Below, piece after piece: positions 2,865-12,576 of a stretch of 56,546 bases of DNA. The notes beneath the pieces were generated by a model, which saw only the letters and a program-made list of their open reading frames with translations, was not told the origin of the DNA and ran no database searches. How positions within the stretch are numbered: position 1 is the stretch's first letter; every line of letters starts with the position of its first letter. Origin of the DNA: a virus (taxonomy: Duplodnaviria; Caudoviricetes). Both the position numbers and the translations under genes were made by a program. The stretch lies in IMG/VR virus record IMGVR_UViG_3300025030_000128, positions 1 through 56,546 of that record; one strand, 5' to 3'.

Positions 2865-2925
2865 CGATAACCAGCGCTGTGCAGCAGGCCGGAAAAGCCC
2901 GGCTGCTGACGCTTGATCGTTATGC
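2865..2925 (+). other. attC-like site
   Basis: CGATAAC...GT[G]CAGCA[G]GCCGG aaaagc CCGGCTGCTGAC...GTTATGC; two extrahelical bases on the left arm. Confidence 0.85.
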
Positions 2926-3159
2926 CCCGCCGGGAAAACATTCGTCCCCGACACAAATTACCTTGGTGTAGTCGTACTGTTTCAATACCGGGAGATTGAC
3001 CGGATCGTTTACCTGCAACCTCGACACTTCGCGCTCCAACCTGCGAATCTCGGCCCATATCTCTACGGGCGTAGCAACCCTTCCGTCGTCGTGGCGGATA
3101 GCTACGCAAACGGGGTCGTCTCTACCCAGATGTTTGTTGCATGGCGACAGATGTAGCAT
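2920..3159 (-). CDS. Cassette-borne hypothetical protein (79 aa)
   Basis: ATG 3159 with AGGAGG RBS; stop lies in the GTTA core. Cassette ends GTTATGCC (2919) / GGCATAAC (3174-3181). Confidence 0.7.
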   Translation of the reverse strand: MLHLSPCNKHLGRDDPVCVAIRHDDGRVATPVEIWAEIRRLEREVSRLQVNDPVNLPVLKQYDYTKVICVGDECFPGGA

Positions 3160-3974: not shown

Positions 3975-4456
3975 TTTCCCTCCTGGTAGGAAAGACCCTG
4001 ATGTAAGAAGTGGGCGAGCAGATCAACAAACTTCTCGTTCTCCCTCAGCTCGTGCTCACCCATGAAGAAAAGGGCGAAATGGATTGTCTCGTGCCAAAGC
4101 GATTCTTCCTGCAGCGTCGGATGGATGTCGCCGGCAAGCAGAATGCGCAGGTTGGGGTAGTCGCTGTAGCCGCCCAGTTGTTTGTCAGCGAAGAGGGTGG
4201 GCATGATCAGCACTTCGATCTTCAGACCGGCAAGAGAGATGTTTTTGGGTATTGTCATTGGATTCCTTTTTATCGAGATAAATAAAAGCGGACGCTTAAA
4301 TTCTTCGAAAAGCCTTCTGCTCTCTTCTTTACGACTTTTGACATAAACATCTTTGAACCACTTATTAAAGCTTTCTTGCTCTGCGCGGTCTATCTTTGCG
4401 AGTCTTTTTTGCCAAGCATAAGGCCACCAGAAGAATCCCAATATTTTATCGAGCAT
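3971..4456 (-). CDS. Small HExxH zincin-like protein (true start possibly 4258)
   Basis: LWHETIH followed by EKFVD; resembles common phage metallopeptidase-like proteins from MTIPKNI onward. Confidence 0.6.
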   Translation of the reverse strand: MLDKILGFFWWPYAWQKRLAKIDRAEQESFNKWFKDVYVKSRKEESRRLFEEFKRPLLFISIKRNPMTIPKNISLAGLKIEVLIMPTLFADKQLGGYSDYPNLRILLAGDIHPTLQEESLWHETIHFALFFMGEHELRENEKFVDLLAHFLHQGLSYQEGK

Positions 4457-7235: not shown

Positions 7236-7468
7236 TTGTCCTCCATCTTGGCGCGGATAGCGGCGGCAATACATTTATGGTCTGTGCAATAAACCGGCCC
7301 TTCGTCTGCCCCAATGTCAGCAATCACCGCCGCTTCCCTAAGTCCTCCAAGACGACCGGCGTTGAAGCAGTTCCTACGCACCTCCGTTTGATGCCCGTCG
7401 AGAAGCAGGGCGTATTCGTTACTATAGTGTAGTTTTCCGTACTCTTTGGCGAACTTTTCAAACATCAT
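7232..7468 (-). CDS. Hypothetical protein (AGRLxGLREAA...AIRAKME type)
   Basis: GGAGG RBS; paralogous to 7975..8271. Confidence 0.65.
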   Translation of the reverse strand: MMFEKFAKEYGKLHYSNEYALLLDGHQTEVRRNCFNAGRLGGLREAAVIADIGADEGPVYCTDHKCIAAAIRAKMEDK

Positions 7469-8387: not shown

Positions 8388-8957
8388 TTAATAAAGGGCT
8401 GAATAAATGACAGCACGTTCATCGCTATAGCCGCGTTTTATTCTGTCATAGATTCTGTCTCTCTTAATTCCGTAATGTTCCGCCCATTGAGTTATATTTT
8501 TTGTTACGCCCTCAATTGTAATTAAGTGGCATTGTCGGCTATTGTTACCTTGTTCTTTTTTTGTAGACCACTTAACATTTTCCGGCTCATAGTTTCCGTC
8601 GTTTTTAATGCGGTCAACTGAATGATCTCTTGATGGACGCTGACCAATATCTTTTTTGAATGCTAGGAAATCGTTCTTCCATTTATCGCAAACGACAATT
8701 CCCCTTCCGCCATAATTATTATAGTGCACGTGATTCTTATTATAGCAACGCTCTAACATTTTCGACCATAAACGGAAAAGGTTTGTCTTTGTTTCGTTGT
8801 GCTTTACCCTGTTACAACCACAGGATTTTGAAAGCCCGCGGGTAAGCGAGCTTTTGTATATATCTTTGACGACACCGCAATCGCATTTGCACGTAAGGTG
8901 ATGTTTCTTTGTGCTAATCCCGATGACTAAGAGTTTTCCATATTTATTTCCTATCAT
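8388..8957 (-). CDS. Free-standing HNH-type homing endonuclease
   Basis: GNKYGKLLVI, CKCDCG, SCGC, YGGRGIVVC and HSVDRIKNDGNYEPENVKW motifs; visibly AT-rich. Confidence 0.85.
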   Translation of the reverse strand: MIGNKYGKLLVIGISTKKHHLTCKCDCGVVKDIYKSSLTRGLSKSCGCNRVKHNETKTNLFRLWSKMLERCYNKNHVHYNNYGGRGIVVCDKWKNDFLAFKKDIGQRPSRDHSVDRIKNDGNYEPENVKWSTKKEQGNNSRQCHLITIEGVTKNITQWAEHYGIKRDRIYDRIKRGYSDERAVIYSALY

Positions 8958-9306
8958 CTTCTTGCTCCCGGAGAAGAAGTTCGAGGCGGGCGAGGCTATT
9001 CCAGACCTCATGAGAGAGATGTAGGAGCCCACTGTCCTGAGCATGGGTCTCTCCCTTACAGATGTCCAGCTCGTGTCTCATTTGGGCGTCTGCGTAGCGG
9101 AGCTGCCCGTTGGGGATGGTGTGCCAGGTATCCCATCCGTGCTTCGTGGCGCCGAACTCGGAGACTCTGGCGACTTGCTCCAGGGCTCTAGGAAAGTAGC
9201 GCAGGACAGAGTGGATGTGGGCCTTGCCGTTGTCATGTTTGGCGCCAGGGTCGACAAGGAAAGATTTCCATGGATACAGTTTGGCGTCCTCTTCTTGGTC
9301 GCTCAT
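8944..9306 (-). CDS. dATP/dGTP diphosphohydrolase (DUF5664-like)
   Basis: GAKHDNGK, V.EFGA.KHG, RY.DA.MRH and DSGLLHL.H..WN motifs. Confidence 0.8.
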   Translation of the reverse strand: MSDQEEDAKLYPWKSFLVDPGAKHDNGKAHIHSVLRYFPRALEQVARVSEFGATKHGWDTWHTIPNGQLRYADAQMRHELDICKGETHAQDSGLLHLSHEVWNSLARLELLLREQEDDRK

Positions 9307-9572
9307 TTGTTCCTCGCTGCAAGATAGTGGTAGGAGGGCTCAGAAGGCTTCCAGATGCGGCCGTCCGCTCCCTTGTAGTAAGGACGCGGGCAGCCCTTGC
9401 GATTGCCTCCACAACAGTCCTGGGCGTACTGCTTGGGGTTGAAGAGATGACGGAGGCCTTCGGCGTGGACGATCTGGGTGAGGGTGGAATGATTGGTGCC
9501 AATAACGAGGGCGGTCGCCCTGATGCTCATGCCAAGGCCGGCATAATATGTGATCTCTTCTTTGAGGGTCAT
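9303..9572 (-). CDS. Small HTH-like protein
   Basis: GMSIRATALVIGTNHSTL helix-turn-helix-like pattern. Confidence 0.55.
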   Translation of the reverse strand: MTLKEEITYYAGLGMSIRATALVIGTNHSTLTQIVHAEGLRHLFNPKQYAQDCCGGNRKGCPRPYYKGADGRIWKPSEPSYHYLAARNK

Positions 9573-9772
9573 ATTGGCAACGTTTCGATCTCGTCGGCGG
9601 CCCAACGAAGGTAGTCCGCGTACTCTTCCTTCGACCGCCACCTGGTCATATTGTCGAGAGAAACGACGAGGAAGCGGCGGCTGCCTGACATTTCGACCGT
9701 GACGGCGAGAGACTGGTAAGTTTCAGCTTTGTTGCCGCGGTCTGCGGTGAAGCGTTGCTCGGTGAGTTTCAT
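9569..9772 (-). CDS. Hypothetical protein
   Basis: 67 aa ORF ending LRWAADEIE; overlaps the next gene by 4 nt. Confidence 0.6.
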   Translation of the reverse strand: MKLTEQRFTADRGNKAETYQSLAVTVEMSGSRRFLVVSLDNMTRWRSKEEYADYLRWAADEIETLPI

Positions 9773-9774
9773 GG

Positions 9775-9822
9775 TTTCAACTTTCTCATGGAGCGGACAA
9801 GCCGCTCATGCTTTAGTTATCC
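9775..9822 (+). other. attC-like site (48 bp, minimal)
   Basis: TTTCAAC-tttct-CAT[G]GAGC-ggacaagcc-GCTCATG-cttta-GTTATCC. Confidence 0.85.
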
Positions 9823-9824
9823 TT

Positions 9825-10196
9825 CTATTTGCCTCGGAACATATCACCCACAATTTTAAACGCTTGTTCCAGCCGCTGCATTGCTTGTTCGGCCTGTAAT
9901 CGCTTGCGTTCAGCCTTGGCTACCCTTCGTTTTTCCACATTTTCAGGCTTCCAGTATGTGGCGTGGCGTTTATCCTGGATTGCCTTTTTCTTGGTTGCAA
10001 TAGATTCCTGAATCGTTGCCTCTTTTTCATAATCAACCATCCGCCGCGCCTGGTTGCCCTCTTCACAAACAGTGCAAAGAGCATAGTCCAGTTGGTTGTG
10101 ATATGTCGGCACCACGCAGCAATCCTCACAGACAGGTTCACCGCAAATATGACAGGTGAAATCGGTTTTATTCTCTTCGCAAACGTGGCAAATCAT
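9825..10196 (-). CDS. Cassette-borne Zn-finger plus charged coiled-coil protein (123 aa)
   Basis: CHVC, CHIC, CEDC and CTVC motifs; GGGAG RBS. Confidence 0.75.
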   Translation of the reverse strand: MICHVCEENKTDFTCHICGEPVCEDCCVVPTYHNQLDYALCTVCEEGNQARRMVDYEKEATIQESIATKKKAIQDKRHATYWKPENVEKRRVAKAERKRLQAEQAMQRLEQAFKIVGDMFRGK

Positions 10197-10226
10197 GAAA
10201 ACTTCTCCCTCGATTGCCACCCCGAA

Positions 10227-10277
10227 GGATAACAATCGGCTGGACGGGTCAAGCCCGTCATCCTCTAGCCGTTATGG
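10227..10277 (+). other. attC-like site
   Basis: GGATAAC-aatcg-GCT[G]GACG-ggtcaagcc-CGTCATC-ctctagcc-GTTATGG. Confidence 0.8.
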
Positions 10278-10311
10278 CGCAAGGCCAGCATCGACCCTGC
10301 GCCACGTTCAG

Positions 10312-10530
10312 TTAAAGCAAAATACCCCAATCTTCGGACAGCATATCGAGATTGTTCGGGTTCCACGGAAACAGTTTTCCGGCAACGTCGCTCATGTAAA
10401 TGTACGAGTGTCCCATTTTGCTGTTTTCGTCGCAAACCTGAAGAGCTAACCACATTCCCTTGCCATTCCAGCCATCACGACTTACTTTGCTTCCGAGCTT
10501 GAGTGCTTCCAACGCTTGTCCGAAATTCAT
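10312..10530 (-). CDS. tad2: DUF2829 / Tad2-like anti-defence nucleotide sponge (72 aa), cassette-borne
   Basis: MNFGQALEALK.G.KV.R.GWNGKGMWL ... PW.P...DMLSEDW signature; AAGGAG RBS. Confidence 0.85.
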   Translation of the reverse strand: MNFGQALEALKLGSKVSRDGWNGKGMWLALQVCDENSKMGHSYIYMSDVAGKLFPWNPNNLDMLSEDWGILL

Positions 10531-10563
10531 ACTGTTCTCCTTTGTAGTTTGGTTGCCCATGCG

Positions 10564-10622
10564 CCATAACCAGCGCATAGACACCGGCTCCCGCTGGTCG
10601 CGGGTCATGCTTGTCGTTATCC
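10564..10622 (+). other. attC-like site (canonical geometry)
   Basis: CCATAAC-cagcg-CAT[A]GAC[A]CCG-gctcccgctggtcg-CGGGTCATG-cttgtc-GTTATCC. Confidence 0.9.
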
Positions 10623-10988
10623 CTGATGGTGTAAGTAGCGCCCAATCTTAGAGTGCTTCACTTGCCGGGCTGCCTGAATCCGGCCAGAATCAATATCCTT
10701 CCCTGCATATTGCCCAGCGGCTAACAGGTCTAGCGCGGCCAGCACATCACCGCATTCGCGCTCCAACAGCTCCCTATTAGTTGGGCCTCCGTCAGGGTGC
10801 CGGGACTCGTAGCCATGCCTGAGAATTTTCCCGACAGCCTGAATTACCTCGCCGCATTCTTCCGCCAATAGTGCAAGTCGTTCGACCTCCGCAAGGGAAA
10901 GGAACGGGATAACCAGTGAATCGACCGGAGGTTTATCCTTGTCGCACTGGCACTGCATGGTTGATGTATCTACCGTCGATTTACACAT
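10617..10988 (-). CDS. MazG-like nucleotide pyrophosphohydrolase
   Basis: LAEECGEVIQAVGKILRHG ... LERECGDVLA: EExxE...ExxD all-alpha NTP-PPase pattern. Confidence 0.8.
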   Translation of the reverse strand: MCKSTVDTSTMQCQCDKDKPPVDSLVIPFLSLAEVERLALLAEECGEVIQAVGKILRHGYESRHPDGGPTNRELLERECGDVLAALDLLAAGQYAGKDIDSGRIQAARQVKHSKIGRYLHHQG

Positions 10989-11342
10989 TTCGTTCTCCCG
11001 GTCATTCACAGACCCGTTAAATAGATCCCTGGCCCCATTAAATCTCCGCATGGTGTCTCCTGACCTTCCGAGACCTGCGCAGAGAAACTTAGACCGGCGG
11101 CATATAGACTGATTGCTGGCCGGGAGACTCACATACCCTGTATCGACCGCCCGTATCGTGGGCTAAACGCTCCGCCTTCCCCTTGTGGTGTTGGGAAGAA
11201 CCATTACAGCCATGCGTATGATAGGTCGTTTGCTCCGGGGCTAAGAGCGGGTAAGCGGTCTTTGGTGCGACTTCCTTGCCAGCCTTCCGTCCTCAGTTTG
11301 GGACATTTGGTGAGGCCCACTGGCGAGGCCAAGAGCGGGCAA

Positions 11343-11449
11343 AGCAAAACCCGCAAAACCACTTCGCCTTGGACGGGCAGAGAAGGGATTTACGGGTGCG
11401 GGTTTTGCTGTGTTCAGTGTTTGGAAGTTTACAACAGATGCCCGTCCAA
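11343..11449 (-). promoter_or_regulatory. Structured leader with competing pairings (attenuator-like)
   Basis: 13-bp inverted repeat 11343-11355/11397-11409 overlaps an 11-bp inverted repeat 11369-11379/11439-11449. Confidence 0.55.
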
Positions 11450-11459
11450 AGGCAAGGAC

Positions 11460-11488
11460 ATGTTACTTAGGGCTGAAAAAAAAGTCAA
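11460..11488 (-). promoter_or_regulatory. Sigma70-type promoter facing cassette array 2
   Basis: TTGACT-17 nt-TAACAT on the minus strand. Confidence 0.65.
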
Positions 11489-11504
11489 ACTTTATCTTTG
11501 GCGA

Positions 11505-11765
11505 TCAGAGATGACAGAGAATGTTGCGGACGTTTTTGCGGGATTTGCGAACGAAGGAAGGGCTACAACCTTGGCAATCCCACTGCCAGGCTCCTTCTTT
11601 CAGCAAGGCAACGAGCGTGTCCTTGACAAGCCTGTAGGTGCCTTCTTCTTCGGCGGCAACATCGATGCAGCCGGTGGCGATTACCTTGCGGGCGTTTTCT
11701 CTGGCCCGCTCGAAAGATTTTTTCAGTAGTTCGTCAACCTTGTCGAGAAATTCTTGGTCAGTCAT
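11505..11765 (-). CDS. Hypothetical protein
   Basis: ATG 11765 with GAGGAG RBS (MTDQEFLDK...). Confidence 0.65.
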   Translation of the reverse strand: MTDQEFLDKVDELLKKSFERARENARKVIATGCIDVAAEEEGTYRLVKDTLVALLKEGAWQWDCQGCSPSFVRKSRKNVRNILCHL

Positions 11766-12093
11766 TGTTTTTCTCCTCTGGTCGTTTGATTTCGCCAACT
11801 GTGCTGCCGTTGAAGGTGTAGGCGACGATCGGCGGAACAACGGTGGTGCCGAGCAGATCCTTCACTTCCCGGGCCGAGATCGACACGCCGCGGTCGGCGT
11901 ACTTGTCGACCAGCACTGGATCGTTCGAGACGAAGGCGACCGCCTTGTCGTTCTGATACAAGGCCGCTATCACCTTCTTGTCAGTCGAGAGCATGTAGTC
12001 AACCACACTCTTTCCCAATAGGTCGTTGGCCGGGATTGGGTTCCAGTGCGGCCGGTTGTCGATGATCTCCAGCTGTTTGATTTCGACTCTCAT
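11758..12093 (-). CDS. Hypothetical protein
   Basis: 111 aa ORF with AAGGA RBS in the replication cluster. Confidence 0.65.
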   Translation of the reverse strand: MRVEIKQLEIIDNRPHWNPIPANDLLGKSVVDYMLSTDKKVIAALYQNDKAVAFVSNDPVLVDKYADRGVSISAREVKDLLGTTVVPPIVAYTFNGSTVGEIKRPEEKNND

Positions 12094-12105
12094 CTTTTCC
12101 TTTCT

Positions 12106-12576
12106 TTAGGTGGCCAGATACTTGACCGCATCAACAAATGACATCTGATCACGATCGATCAGTGTATCAAGGGCTGAGAAGTAGCGGTTACAGGACCCAC
12201 ACCAGGCGATCCCCTTCTTGCTCATGAAGGTGAGCGACGGCCGCTTGTCGTCGTGGCACCAGGCGAAGGCTTTCCCGAAGCGGTCGAACTGAATCACCGC
12301 GGTCACAGGGACGGCCCGGGCCGCCTCGATCATGGCGTCGGTAATCTGGTTGGTCTGTTGGGGTACAGAAAACTCTCCGCCTTCGTTCTTAGTCAGGTAG
12401 GCGATCTCGTCGAGGATTTCTTTGGCGAAGTGGAGAGCAACCGGAGAACCGTCGAGGATCAGGGCGCCGAGGTAGGGGGTGAGGAATCTCTTTCTCATGC
12501 GACTAGCGGCGAGCTTGTTGATCTCGAACTCCTTGGCCTTGCGGAAGGTAAGCGCGGGGTCTTTATTGGCGAACAT
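12106..12576 (-). CDS. CHC2 (primase-type) zinc-finger protein
   Basis: WCHDDKRPSL..WCGSC...D....MSFVDAVKYL resembles the DnaG zinc-binding domain; no TOPRIM domain. Confidence 0.7.
   Translation of the reverse strand: MFANKDPALTFRKAKEFEINKLAASRMRKRFLTPYLGALILDGSPVALHFAKEILDEIAYLTKNEGGEFSVPQQTNQITDAMIEAARAVPVTAVIQFDRFGKAFAWCHDDKRPSLTFMSKKGIAWCGSCNRYFSALDTLIDRDQMSFVDAVKYLAT

Follow-up and report, generated by a model that had tools for sequence, protein, structure and literature searches.

The hairpin that appears to hold the start of a MazG-like gene in this phage DNA is probably one junction of a phage-borne array of integron-type cassettes, CALIN-like and without an integrase in the window, by which we mean the whole stretch analysed, a record of 56,546 bp from groundwater metagenomes that is estimated to be 77% complete. 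The sites share an architecture and covary, the ends of each unit are complementary, and sites of the same types stand with other cargo in other phage contigs. Four and five sites in two close arrays without an integrase correspond to the definition of a CALIN, provided that the sites count as attC. An earlier note on this DNA had proposed that a start-less MazG-like cassette is translated through an attC half-site and fused by recombination to an upstream leader. That reading was right in kind, the ORF being translated through an attC-like site, and probably wrong in detail, in that the site is complete and the leader and domain most likely form one cassette, not a fusion across a crossover.

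Seven small minus-strand genes lie in two arrays (10913-9816 and 3181-1959), in which they are separated by hairpin sites of the general form xxxATAAC-spacer-stem with bulge-spacer-GTTATxxx. Units were scanned for as GTT.../...AAC pairs with perfect complementarity of at least 8 nt, 120-1600 nt apart. The units, sites and genes are as follows.

10907..11022, minus strand: s1, long attC-like hairpin, 116 nt box to box
10913 to 10616, minus strand: MazG unit, ends GTTATCCC and GGGATAAC, 8/8 complementary
10617..10988, minus strand: MazG-like NTP pyrophosphohydrolase gene, 123 aa counted from ATG 10988
10564..10622, minus strand: s2, GGATAAC-GACAA-GCATGAC...GTC(T)ATGC-GCTG-GTTATGG, 47.5 bits
10570 to 10271, minus strand: unit 2 (Tad2-like cargo), ends GTTATGGCGCA and TGCGCCATAAC, 11/11 complementary
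10312..10530, minus strand: Tad2-like gene (72 aa), PF11195 at 84.2 bits, cut-off 25
10227..10277, minus strand: s3, CCATAAC ... GACGGG-CTTGA-CCCGTC ... GTTATCC, 42.9 bits
10233 to 9816, minus strand: unit 3 (Cys-rich cargo), ends GTTATCCTTC and GAAGGATAAC, 10/10 complementary
9825..10196, minus strand: Cys-rich gene (123 aa), no Pfam family above cut-off
9775..9822, minus strand: s4, last of array 1, GGATAAC-TAAAG-CATGAGCGG-CTTGT-CCGCT(C)CATG-AGAAA-GTTGAAA, 32.8 bits
1914..3231, minus strand: five sites of array 2, sA 3231-3175, sB 2925-2865, sC 2616-2554, sD 2257-2195, sE 1965-1914
3181 to 2919, minus strand: array 2 unit, end complementarity 8, gene 2920-3159
2871 to 2610, minus strand: array 2 unit, end complementarity 8, gene 2619-2837
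2560 to 2251, minus strand: array 2 unit, end complementarity 10, gene 2252-2530
2201 to 1959, minus strand: array 2 unit, end complementarity 10, gene 1960-2169

In each of the seven units the first 8-11 bases are the exact complement of the last 8-11, whereas the two boxes inside one site have only GTTAT or GTT in common. The gaps between units, of 38-50 nt, are occupied by the hairpin sites. A perfect box match across the unit and not within the site is the signature expected of circles that recombine inside the box, as integron cassettes do.

Several other features of these regions were seen. The Tad2-like protein belongs to the anti-Thoeris sponge family; its annotated 98-aa frame is probably too long, and ATG 10530 has a good RBS. 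A Pfam search with the four genes of array 2 returned no family for any of them. The GTTGAAAC box that closes array 1 closes array 2 as well, and after array 2, at about 1871-1907, comes a strong, terminator-like hairpin plus T-run. Upstream of array 1, the region 11020-11560 comprises about 480 bp without a convincing ORF and three GCAAAACCCGCA-type motif copies in an inverted arrangement, and may be a regulatory or promoter region. On the minus strand, 8944-9306 matches the N-terminal domain of a dATP/dGTP diphosphohydrolase (81 bits; protein in 8388-9306), and an HNH endonuclease ORF at 8388-9044 (phrog_374, 2e-61) overlaps the 3' end of this diphosphohydrolase-domain protein.

The 8-mer on which the earlier note was built is not significant alone, with three matches in the window against 1.08 expected and three or more in 11 of 100 shuffles. 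The window contains chains of 4 and 3 units with five adjacencies; among 300 shuffles, 222 had a longest chain of 1, 75 one of 2 and three one of 3, the mean number of adjacencies was 0.34 and no chain reached four units. The 8-mers are thus significant because of the unit series, not because of the single repeat. A chance inverted repeat around an ordinary gene with an N-terminal extension agrees with the 8-mer count, but it is contradicted by the unit chains and by the covariation and the recurrence in other contigs described below, and we regard it as hardly credible.

For the covariation analysis we aligned 36 of the 38 short sites collected, from seven records, leaving out L201:1252-1316 (a duplicate hairpin) and L202:1784-1844 (near-identical to the copy in L130). 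The consensus fold consists of a 4-bp TAAC/GTTA box and a stem of 3 bp, a bulge and 6 bp; the pairing of the R boxes is taken from this alignment fold and not from folds of single sites. Paired cells amounted to 95.5% against 74.2% in shuffled alignments and the covariation score was 0.509 against 0.131, with none of 500 shuffles as high in either measure; slid controls gave covariation of 0.03-0.08. Compensatory changes were found at 9 of 13 stem pairs. All of TAAC is invariant, whereas in the GTTA columns this holds for T54 alone, the remainder being at least 90% conserved. The AAC and GTT triplets are present in all nine window sites, but only 4-7 of 7 and 4-6 of 7 positions of the boxes fit RYYYAAC and GTTRRRY, respectively, the family consensus being ATAAC/GTTAT. 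Spacers in the folded sites are about 5 and 4 nt long. The fold of s4 has a z of -3.0, with one of 200 shuffles as good; the GTT box of sE, read by eye, is GTTGAAA. With the site model the sites of array 2 score 26.4-52.5 bits, and in the window the covariance model finds only its eight training sites, all on the minus strand, and recovers untrained sites in G001. The s1 of the window obtains a local score of 7.4 bits without a full-length match, a low score that is not accounted for by its few sequence differences; the s1 orthologue in G001 reaches 32.8 bits despite a 67-nt loop insertion. The interpretation of the two motifs (GTTATCCC at 10616-10623 and GGGATAAC at 10906-10913 on the plus strand) as R boxes of attC-like recombination sites is supported.

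Sites of the same type occur in other contigs. A pattern built from the shared site ends matched 111 stretches in a viral scan, and many of the 80 loci listed were chance or coding matches that form no hairpin, including a recurrent 53-nt match in one sample. Arrays of the same type were found in viral contigs L130 (4 units), L184 (5), L189 (7), L196 (3) and L120 (3). The four units of L130 have an end complementarity of 9-10 nt, and L130 has nothing in common with the window but a 55-bp homologue of s2 (92.7% identity), in which one compensating stem change was read by eye. This homologue lies directly after a sigma-70-like promoter region and is followed by different cassettes; the flanks of the s2 homologues in both L130 and L202 differ from those in the window. 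In bacterial contigs (one genome per species), two of 19 pattern matches are real sites (L201 and L202), at least one of them on a phage-like contig, and the other 17 look like chance. The phage-like contig L202 (322-2312), which contains the same cassette twice in one array, is binned in a Desulfuromonadaceae MAG (G003). It looks misbinned and therefore gives no evidence on the host.

Cargo differs between otherwise matching cassettes. L202 372-682 and window 10271-10570 share the site, the 5' leader and the 3' trailer (GTTATGGCGCAT.GGCAACCA ... GGCGCAGGGTCGATGCTGGCCTTGC.CCATAAC) and differ in their ORFs; on this comparison the coding part is swapped within a conserved cassette frame. A more abundant contig from the source sample shares 10286-10319 and 10535-10619, among them s2 and the 5' leader after it; it has 375 nt in place of 215 nt including the Tad2-like ORF, and its divergence sets in at the TAAC box. 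In run X3 the summed contig depth over window 10184-10851 is 75-104, compared with 3-5 elsewhere, because another, much more abundant groundwater genome shares s2 and s3; window parts that X3 does not cover are uninformative. The arrays of L184 (5 units, 7304-7381) and L196 (3 units, 4000-4077) end at the same backbone, ATAAC C.(T/C)TGATTAACAAGCCATTTTGCCCTGATAATG, which suggests a shared insertion point filled with different cassettes. Two contig joints within the window, 2239 to 2867 (side 24) and 10930 to 10995 (side 22), were too short to trust.

This kind of exchange has another conceivable explanation. For the promoter-stem-loop cassettes of T4-type phages, exchange by homologous recombination between conserved intergenic blocks has been proposed, and the hairpins described here could likewise be RNA or transcription punctuation (processing sites, attenuators or terminators), with cargo swapped by homologous recombination between conserved blocks. 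The sites are intergenic, the first one of L130 follows a sigma-70-like promoter, site sequence is kept between otherwise unrelated contigs, and ORFs are replaced within conserved 5' and 3' flanks, both in L202 compared with the window and in the abundant metagenome contig. However, punctuation leaves unexplained why a unit starts with the exact complement of its own end and why the boxes within a site differ, no T-runs follow the stems of the window sites, an Rfam search of 9500-12500 at E up to 1 gave no match, and the bulge geometry and the AAC/GTT boxes fit the rules for recombination sites. We consider this explanation improbable.

Site s1 differs in its length and in what it contains. 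Its AAC box, ATTTAAC (11022-11016, minus strand), is followed by a spacer and by the arm GTGAATGACCGG (11009-10998), which pairs with CCGGTC(G)ATTCAC (10928-10916) with one bulged G; the spacer TG precedes the GTT box, GTTATCC (10913-10907). The complete hairpin measures 114 bp; TAAC (11019-11016) and GTTA (10913-10910) stand on either side of its arms. The earlier note had described only the left attC arm after the second motif; the partner arm at 10998-11009 makes this a whole hairpin and not a half-site. The 69-nt loop contains an RBS (GGGAG, 10999-10995), ATG 10988 and about 21 codons, and the 3' arm and GTT box code for PVDSLVIP. The frame 10617-11132 on the minus strand reads ...PPVDSLVIPF... 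across the second motif, as had been noted, and the first 26-28 residues of the MazG-like protein are, by this reading, site-encoded. A second ORF that starts in a site loop is found at L202 1573-1791, where CTGGTTA is read as L-V-S. Inspection of the s1 sequence gave no fit to a tRNA-like or attP remnant.

The open frame 10617-11132 (171 aa) has possible starts at GTG 11132, ATG 11051, ATG 10988 and ATG 10958, and its stop TAA (10619-10617) sits within the GGGATAAC box. ATG 10988 has GGGAG 6 nt upstream. ATG 11051, picked by the gene caller (P0001, 144 aa), also has an RBS, AGGAG. The orthologue P0006 (123 aa) in L001, part of a complete 61.8-kb phage record with terminal repeats, has the same N-terminus, MCKSTVDTST, and an in-frame stop just upstream. 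The 23 nt 5' of the RBS are identical in the window and L001, yet lie in different frames, which makes the 144-aa form less likely. We infer that translation starts at ATG 10988. DNA similarity between L001 (6.4 kb) and the window is confined to a single 171-bp stretch around the leader, and s1 and the MazG gene stand together in L001 too. A search of isolated-phage DNA with region 9800-12200 gave no match.

The MazG-like domain corresponds to the C-terminal ~94 aa of the frame. The gene scores 21.5 bits with Pfam MazG, just below the cut-off of 22, and the protein matches phrog_4856 (2.8e-18) and, in a profile search, PDB entries 2gta and 5ie9 (E 0.004-0.006). As to the acidic EExxE...E..D metal-binding helices of the family, E91, E92, E95, E126 and D146 are invariant across 28 sequences. 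The protein is most likely a MazG-type nucleotide pyrophosphohydrolase serving the phage, beside a Tad2-like anti-Thoeris cassette. An exhaustive protein search with the frame returned 2766 cluster representatives at E<=1e-3. Among the 150 matches listed, most start at residues 74-81 of the 171-aa frame, in agreement with the expectation that similarity to homologues would begin just after LVIP; all 15 phage records align only from residues 93-95 on. Many relatives, of 95-105 aa, begin with a Met of their own at the very position of IPF in the window.

In canonical attC sites the recombined bottom strand is cut between the A and C of AAC, and the arm facing this triplet carries the extrahelical bases, of which the first is at position 16 and the last 6 bp further on (Nivina 2016, PMC5027507). 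Among 38 folded sites of our set, 49 bulges of the coding strand lie only on the GTT arm and six only on the AAC arm. A GTT-arm bulge occurs at least once in 31 of the 38, and in several sites bulges are separated by 6 bp. By this polarity the coding strand looks like the bottom strand, which would place the crossover at xTAA|C and send the hairpin with the downstream gene. Under the published attC rule the predicted crossovers of the MazG unit are 11017|11016 and 10617|10616, not G|TTATCCC. The longest ORF is on the bottom-like (coding) strand in 38 of 40 units from nine arrays, with the hairpin preceding the gene, and in 24 of the 40 the TAA of xTAAC serves as stop codon. All nine arrays start with a hairpin. 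The downstream end is intact in seven, and in four of these (L130, L184, L189 and L196) the last element is xATAAC, without a following hairpin. In L202 the last, truncated site is joined to a recombinase remnant of 53 aa. This remnant lies on the ORF strand, as expected if the ORFs of the cassettes are antisense to those of canonical ones, and its best family match is TIGR02249, the integron integrase (73.9 bits), over positions 265-315 of the 315 in the profile. At the junction, 15 nt are common to the hairpin arm and the recombinase codons. The polarity of the bulges, the orientation of the genes, the array ends and the strand of the integrase remnant suggest that a hairpin goes with the gene that follows it, in which case the leader and the MazG domain would be one cassette.

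Spelled out, the fusion reading of the earlier note would have a start-less MazG cassette beginning at G|TTATCCC, which a crossover at the GTT box of the coding strand, a top-strand event in integron terms, would join to the leader of a neighbouring site; the site would then act as a portable start-plus-leader linker. The absence of a well-placed start inside the cassette was confirmed, with no in-frame ATG, GTG or TTG between ATG 10958 and the TTG of Leu89 in conserved helix 1 of the domain. Identity to L001 falls from 99 of 116 columns between TAAC and GTTATCCC, with both arms identical, to 153 of 302 in the rest of the gene right after GTTATCCC; at the protein level the leader is 25/29 identical and the domain only 43/94. 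In L083 the s1 3' arm and GTTATCCCG are followed by unrelated DNA, with the frame open for 20 more codons, and two contigs each from X1 and X3 match only 10910-11019, with foreign DNA on both sides. The close homologues P0002, P0004 and P0089 keep PV..(V/A)IP(F/G)LS behind unrelated N-termini. In L083 and the metagenome contigs the leader DNA is thus joined to other sequence at the GTT box, whereas the four lines of evidence above put the hairpin in the MazG cassette. The coding-strand bulges on the GTT arm predict cleavage at the AAC box by the published rule, the hairpin comes first in all nine arrays and is missing at four of seven intact downstream ends, and the L202 integrase remnant lies on the ORF strand. 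Moreover, the breakpoints past the GTT box vary, falling after GTTA, after GTTATCCC or after GTTATCCCG, and L083 is a 1-kb fragment cut inside s1. Domain swapping at the GTT box is possible but less likely than the one-cassette reading, and we hold the start-less cassette of the earlier note to be unlikely.

Both edges of the sites are breakpoints in nature, which a single crossover at the AAC box does not explain; part of this may be due to homologous exchange between conserved sites or to recombination of either strand. Possibly, phages run an integron-like system of their own with the site upstream of the gene, in which some sites are portable start modules (RBS, ATG and a leader of ~26 codons in the loop, the arm and GTT box being read as ...LV(I/S)...) and a crossover at either box grafts the leader onto start-less cargo. 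Such grafting would explain how the 110-bp site came to be joined to two MazG lineages, to the unrelated DNA of L083 and to other metagenome DNA. We regard it as unlikely.

In the favoured reading, a one-cassette unit in an integron-type array, a cassette would consist of a hairpin recombination site followed by a small gene. The site is made up of an AAC box, an unpaired spacer of 4-6 nt, a stem whose GTT-side arm has a one-base bulge, a loop of variable size, a second spacer and a GTT box, and the stop codon of the gene usually falls within the next xTAAC box. Units would move as circles through the action of a tyrosine recombinase, which would cleave the folded coding strand at its AAC box, and the hairpin would accompany the gene that follows it; a host IntI or a compact phage-encoded recombinase could be the enzyme. 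The MazG cassette has an unusually long hairpin, whose leader runs into a domain that in most relatives starts at this point with a Met of its own.

No tyrosine recombinase (PF00589) was detected in the 56,546 nt of the window, the record being an estimated 77% complete, and no intI gene with attI was found beside its arrays. None of five other array-bearing records has an IntI above cut-off. These absences speak against the cassette reading. G001 and G005 encode tyrosine recombinases of 194 and 191 aa that consist of the catalytic domain only and match best a XerA-type model, below its cut-off. In contig L085 of G001 the recombinase is at 1408-1992 and one or two cassette-like sites (39.1 and 18.8 bits with the model) are within 2575-2920, about 0.6-0.9 kb downstream of the recombinase gene. 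Homologues were found in none of four other array-bearing records searched (41-87% complete); the small recombinases are candidate array enzymes but, being absent from the window and from all four of these records, show no association with the arrays. A link to host integrons through G003 was rejected: the IntI of this MAG is genuine (343 bits), yet the attC-like stretches next to it differ by eye and are not matched by the phage site model (at most 14.2 bits).

Arrays of this kind have precedents in phages, where 17 attC clusters have been reported and IntI1 was active on five of six tested sites (Qi 2023, PMC9892861). Those phage CALINs are also arrays of attC-type hairpins between small phage genes, with the integrase not nearby and with cargo thought to counter host defence. 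Those sites were found by IntegronFinder and tested with IntI1, whereas the window sites were identified from sequence patterns, folds and covariation. The window sites further differ in sharing a phage-specific consensus, ATAACGRC.AG ... CTGGTTAT, in having genes on the bottom-like attC strand, such that the hairpin precedes the gene, and in that one site holds a start codon. Canonical attC sites (Nivina 2016, PMC5027507; Larouche and Roy 2011, PMC3053210) resemble the window sites in their AAC/GTT boxes, unpaired spacer of ~5 nt, variable terminal loop and extrahelical bases opposite AAC, several window sites having 6 bp between bulges. By our count, about 16 nt separate the first bulge from the outer edge of the GTT box; the published position is 16, counted from an origin that the passage giving it does not state. 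The 116 nt of s1, measured box to box, fall within the published range of 57-141 bp. Split boxes with cassette-specific complementarity and a stop codon inside the AAC box are shared with canonical cassettes too. In contrast, 38 of 40 units here have their gene inverted with respect to the polarity of the site, many sites, of 48-61 bp, lie at the published minimum or under it, and the boxes are ATAAC/GTTAT instead of RYYYAAC/GTTRRRY. Sedentary chromosomal integrons, whose attC sites are homogeneous (PMC5027507), also combine one site type with different cargo and have long variable loops, whereas the elements described here are in virus records. Unlike canonical integrons, the window has neither IntI nor attI. 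In the accessible portion of the literature searched, no paper was found on a phage-specific site family, inverted polarity, an in-site start codon or Tad2-type cargo in such cassettes.

In the G segments inverted by Gin and Cin and in Rci shufflons, a recombination site inside coding sequence joins one N-terminal part to alternative C-terminal parts. The site described here is likewise within coding sequence; unlike in those systems, the MazG segment has no opposite-strand ORF and its repeats are only 8 bp. An inversion switch of the MazG segment was rejected, with no plus-strand ORF of at least 30 aa inside 10652-10915.

Integron cassettes are a bacterial means to stock and shuffle accessory genes and have recently been recognized also as stores of anti-phage defence. 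The arrays described here would be the mirror image in an uncultivated groundwater phage, with counter-defence-type genes (Tad2-like and MazG-like) in hairpin-bounded cassettes and a site family common to many virus contigs. The inverted gene-to-site polarity, the stop codon in the AAC box and a site with a gene start and leader raise testable questions: what recombinase mobilizes the units, on which strand it acts, and whether a recombination site can double as coding sequence.
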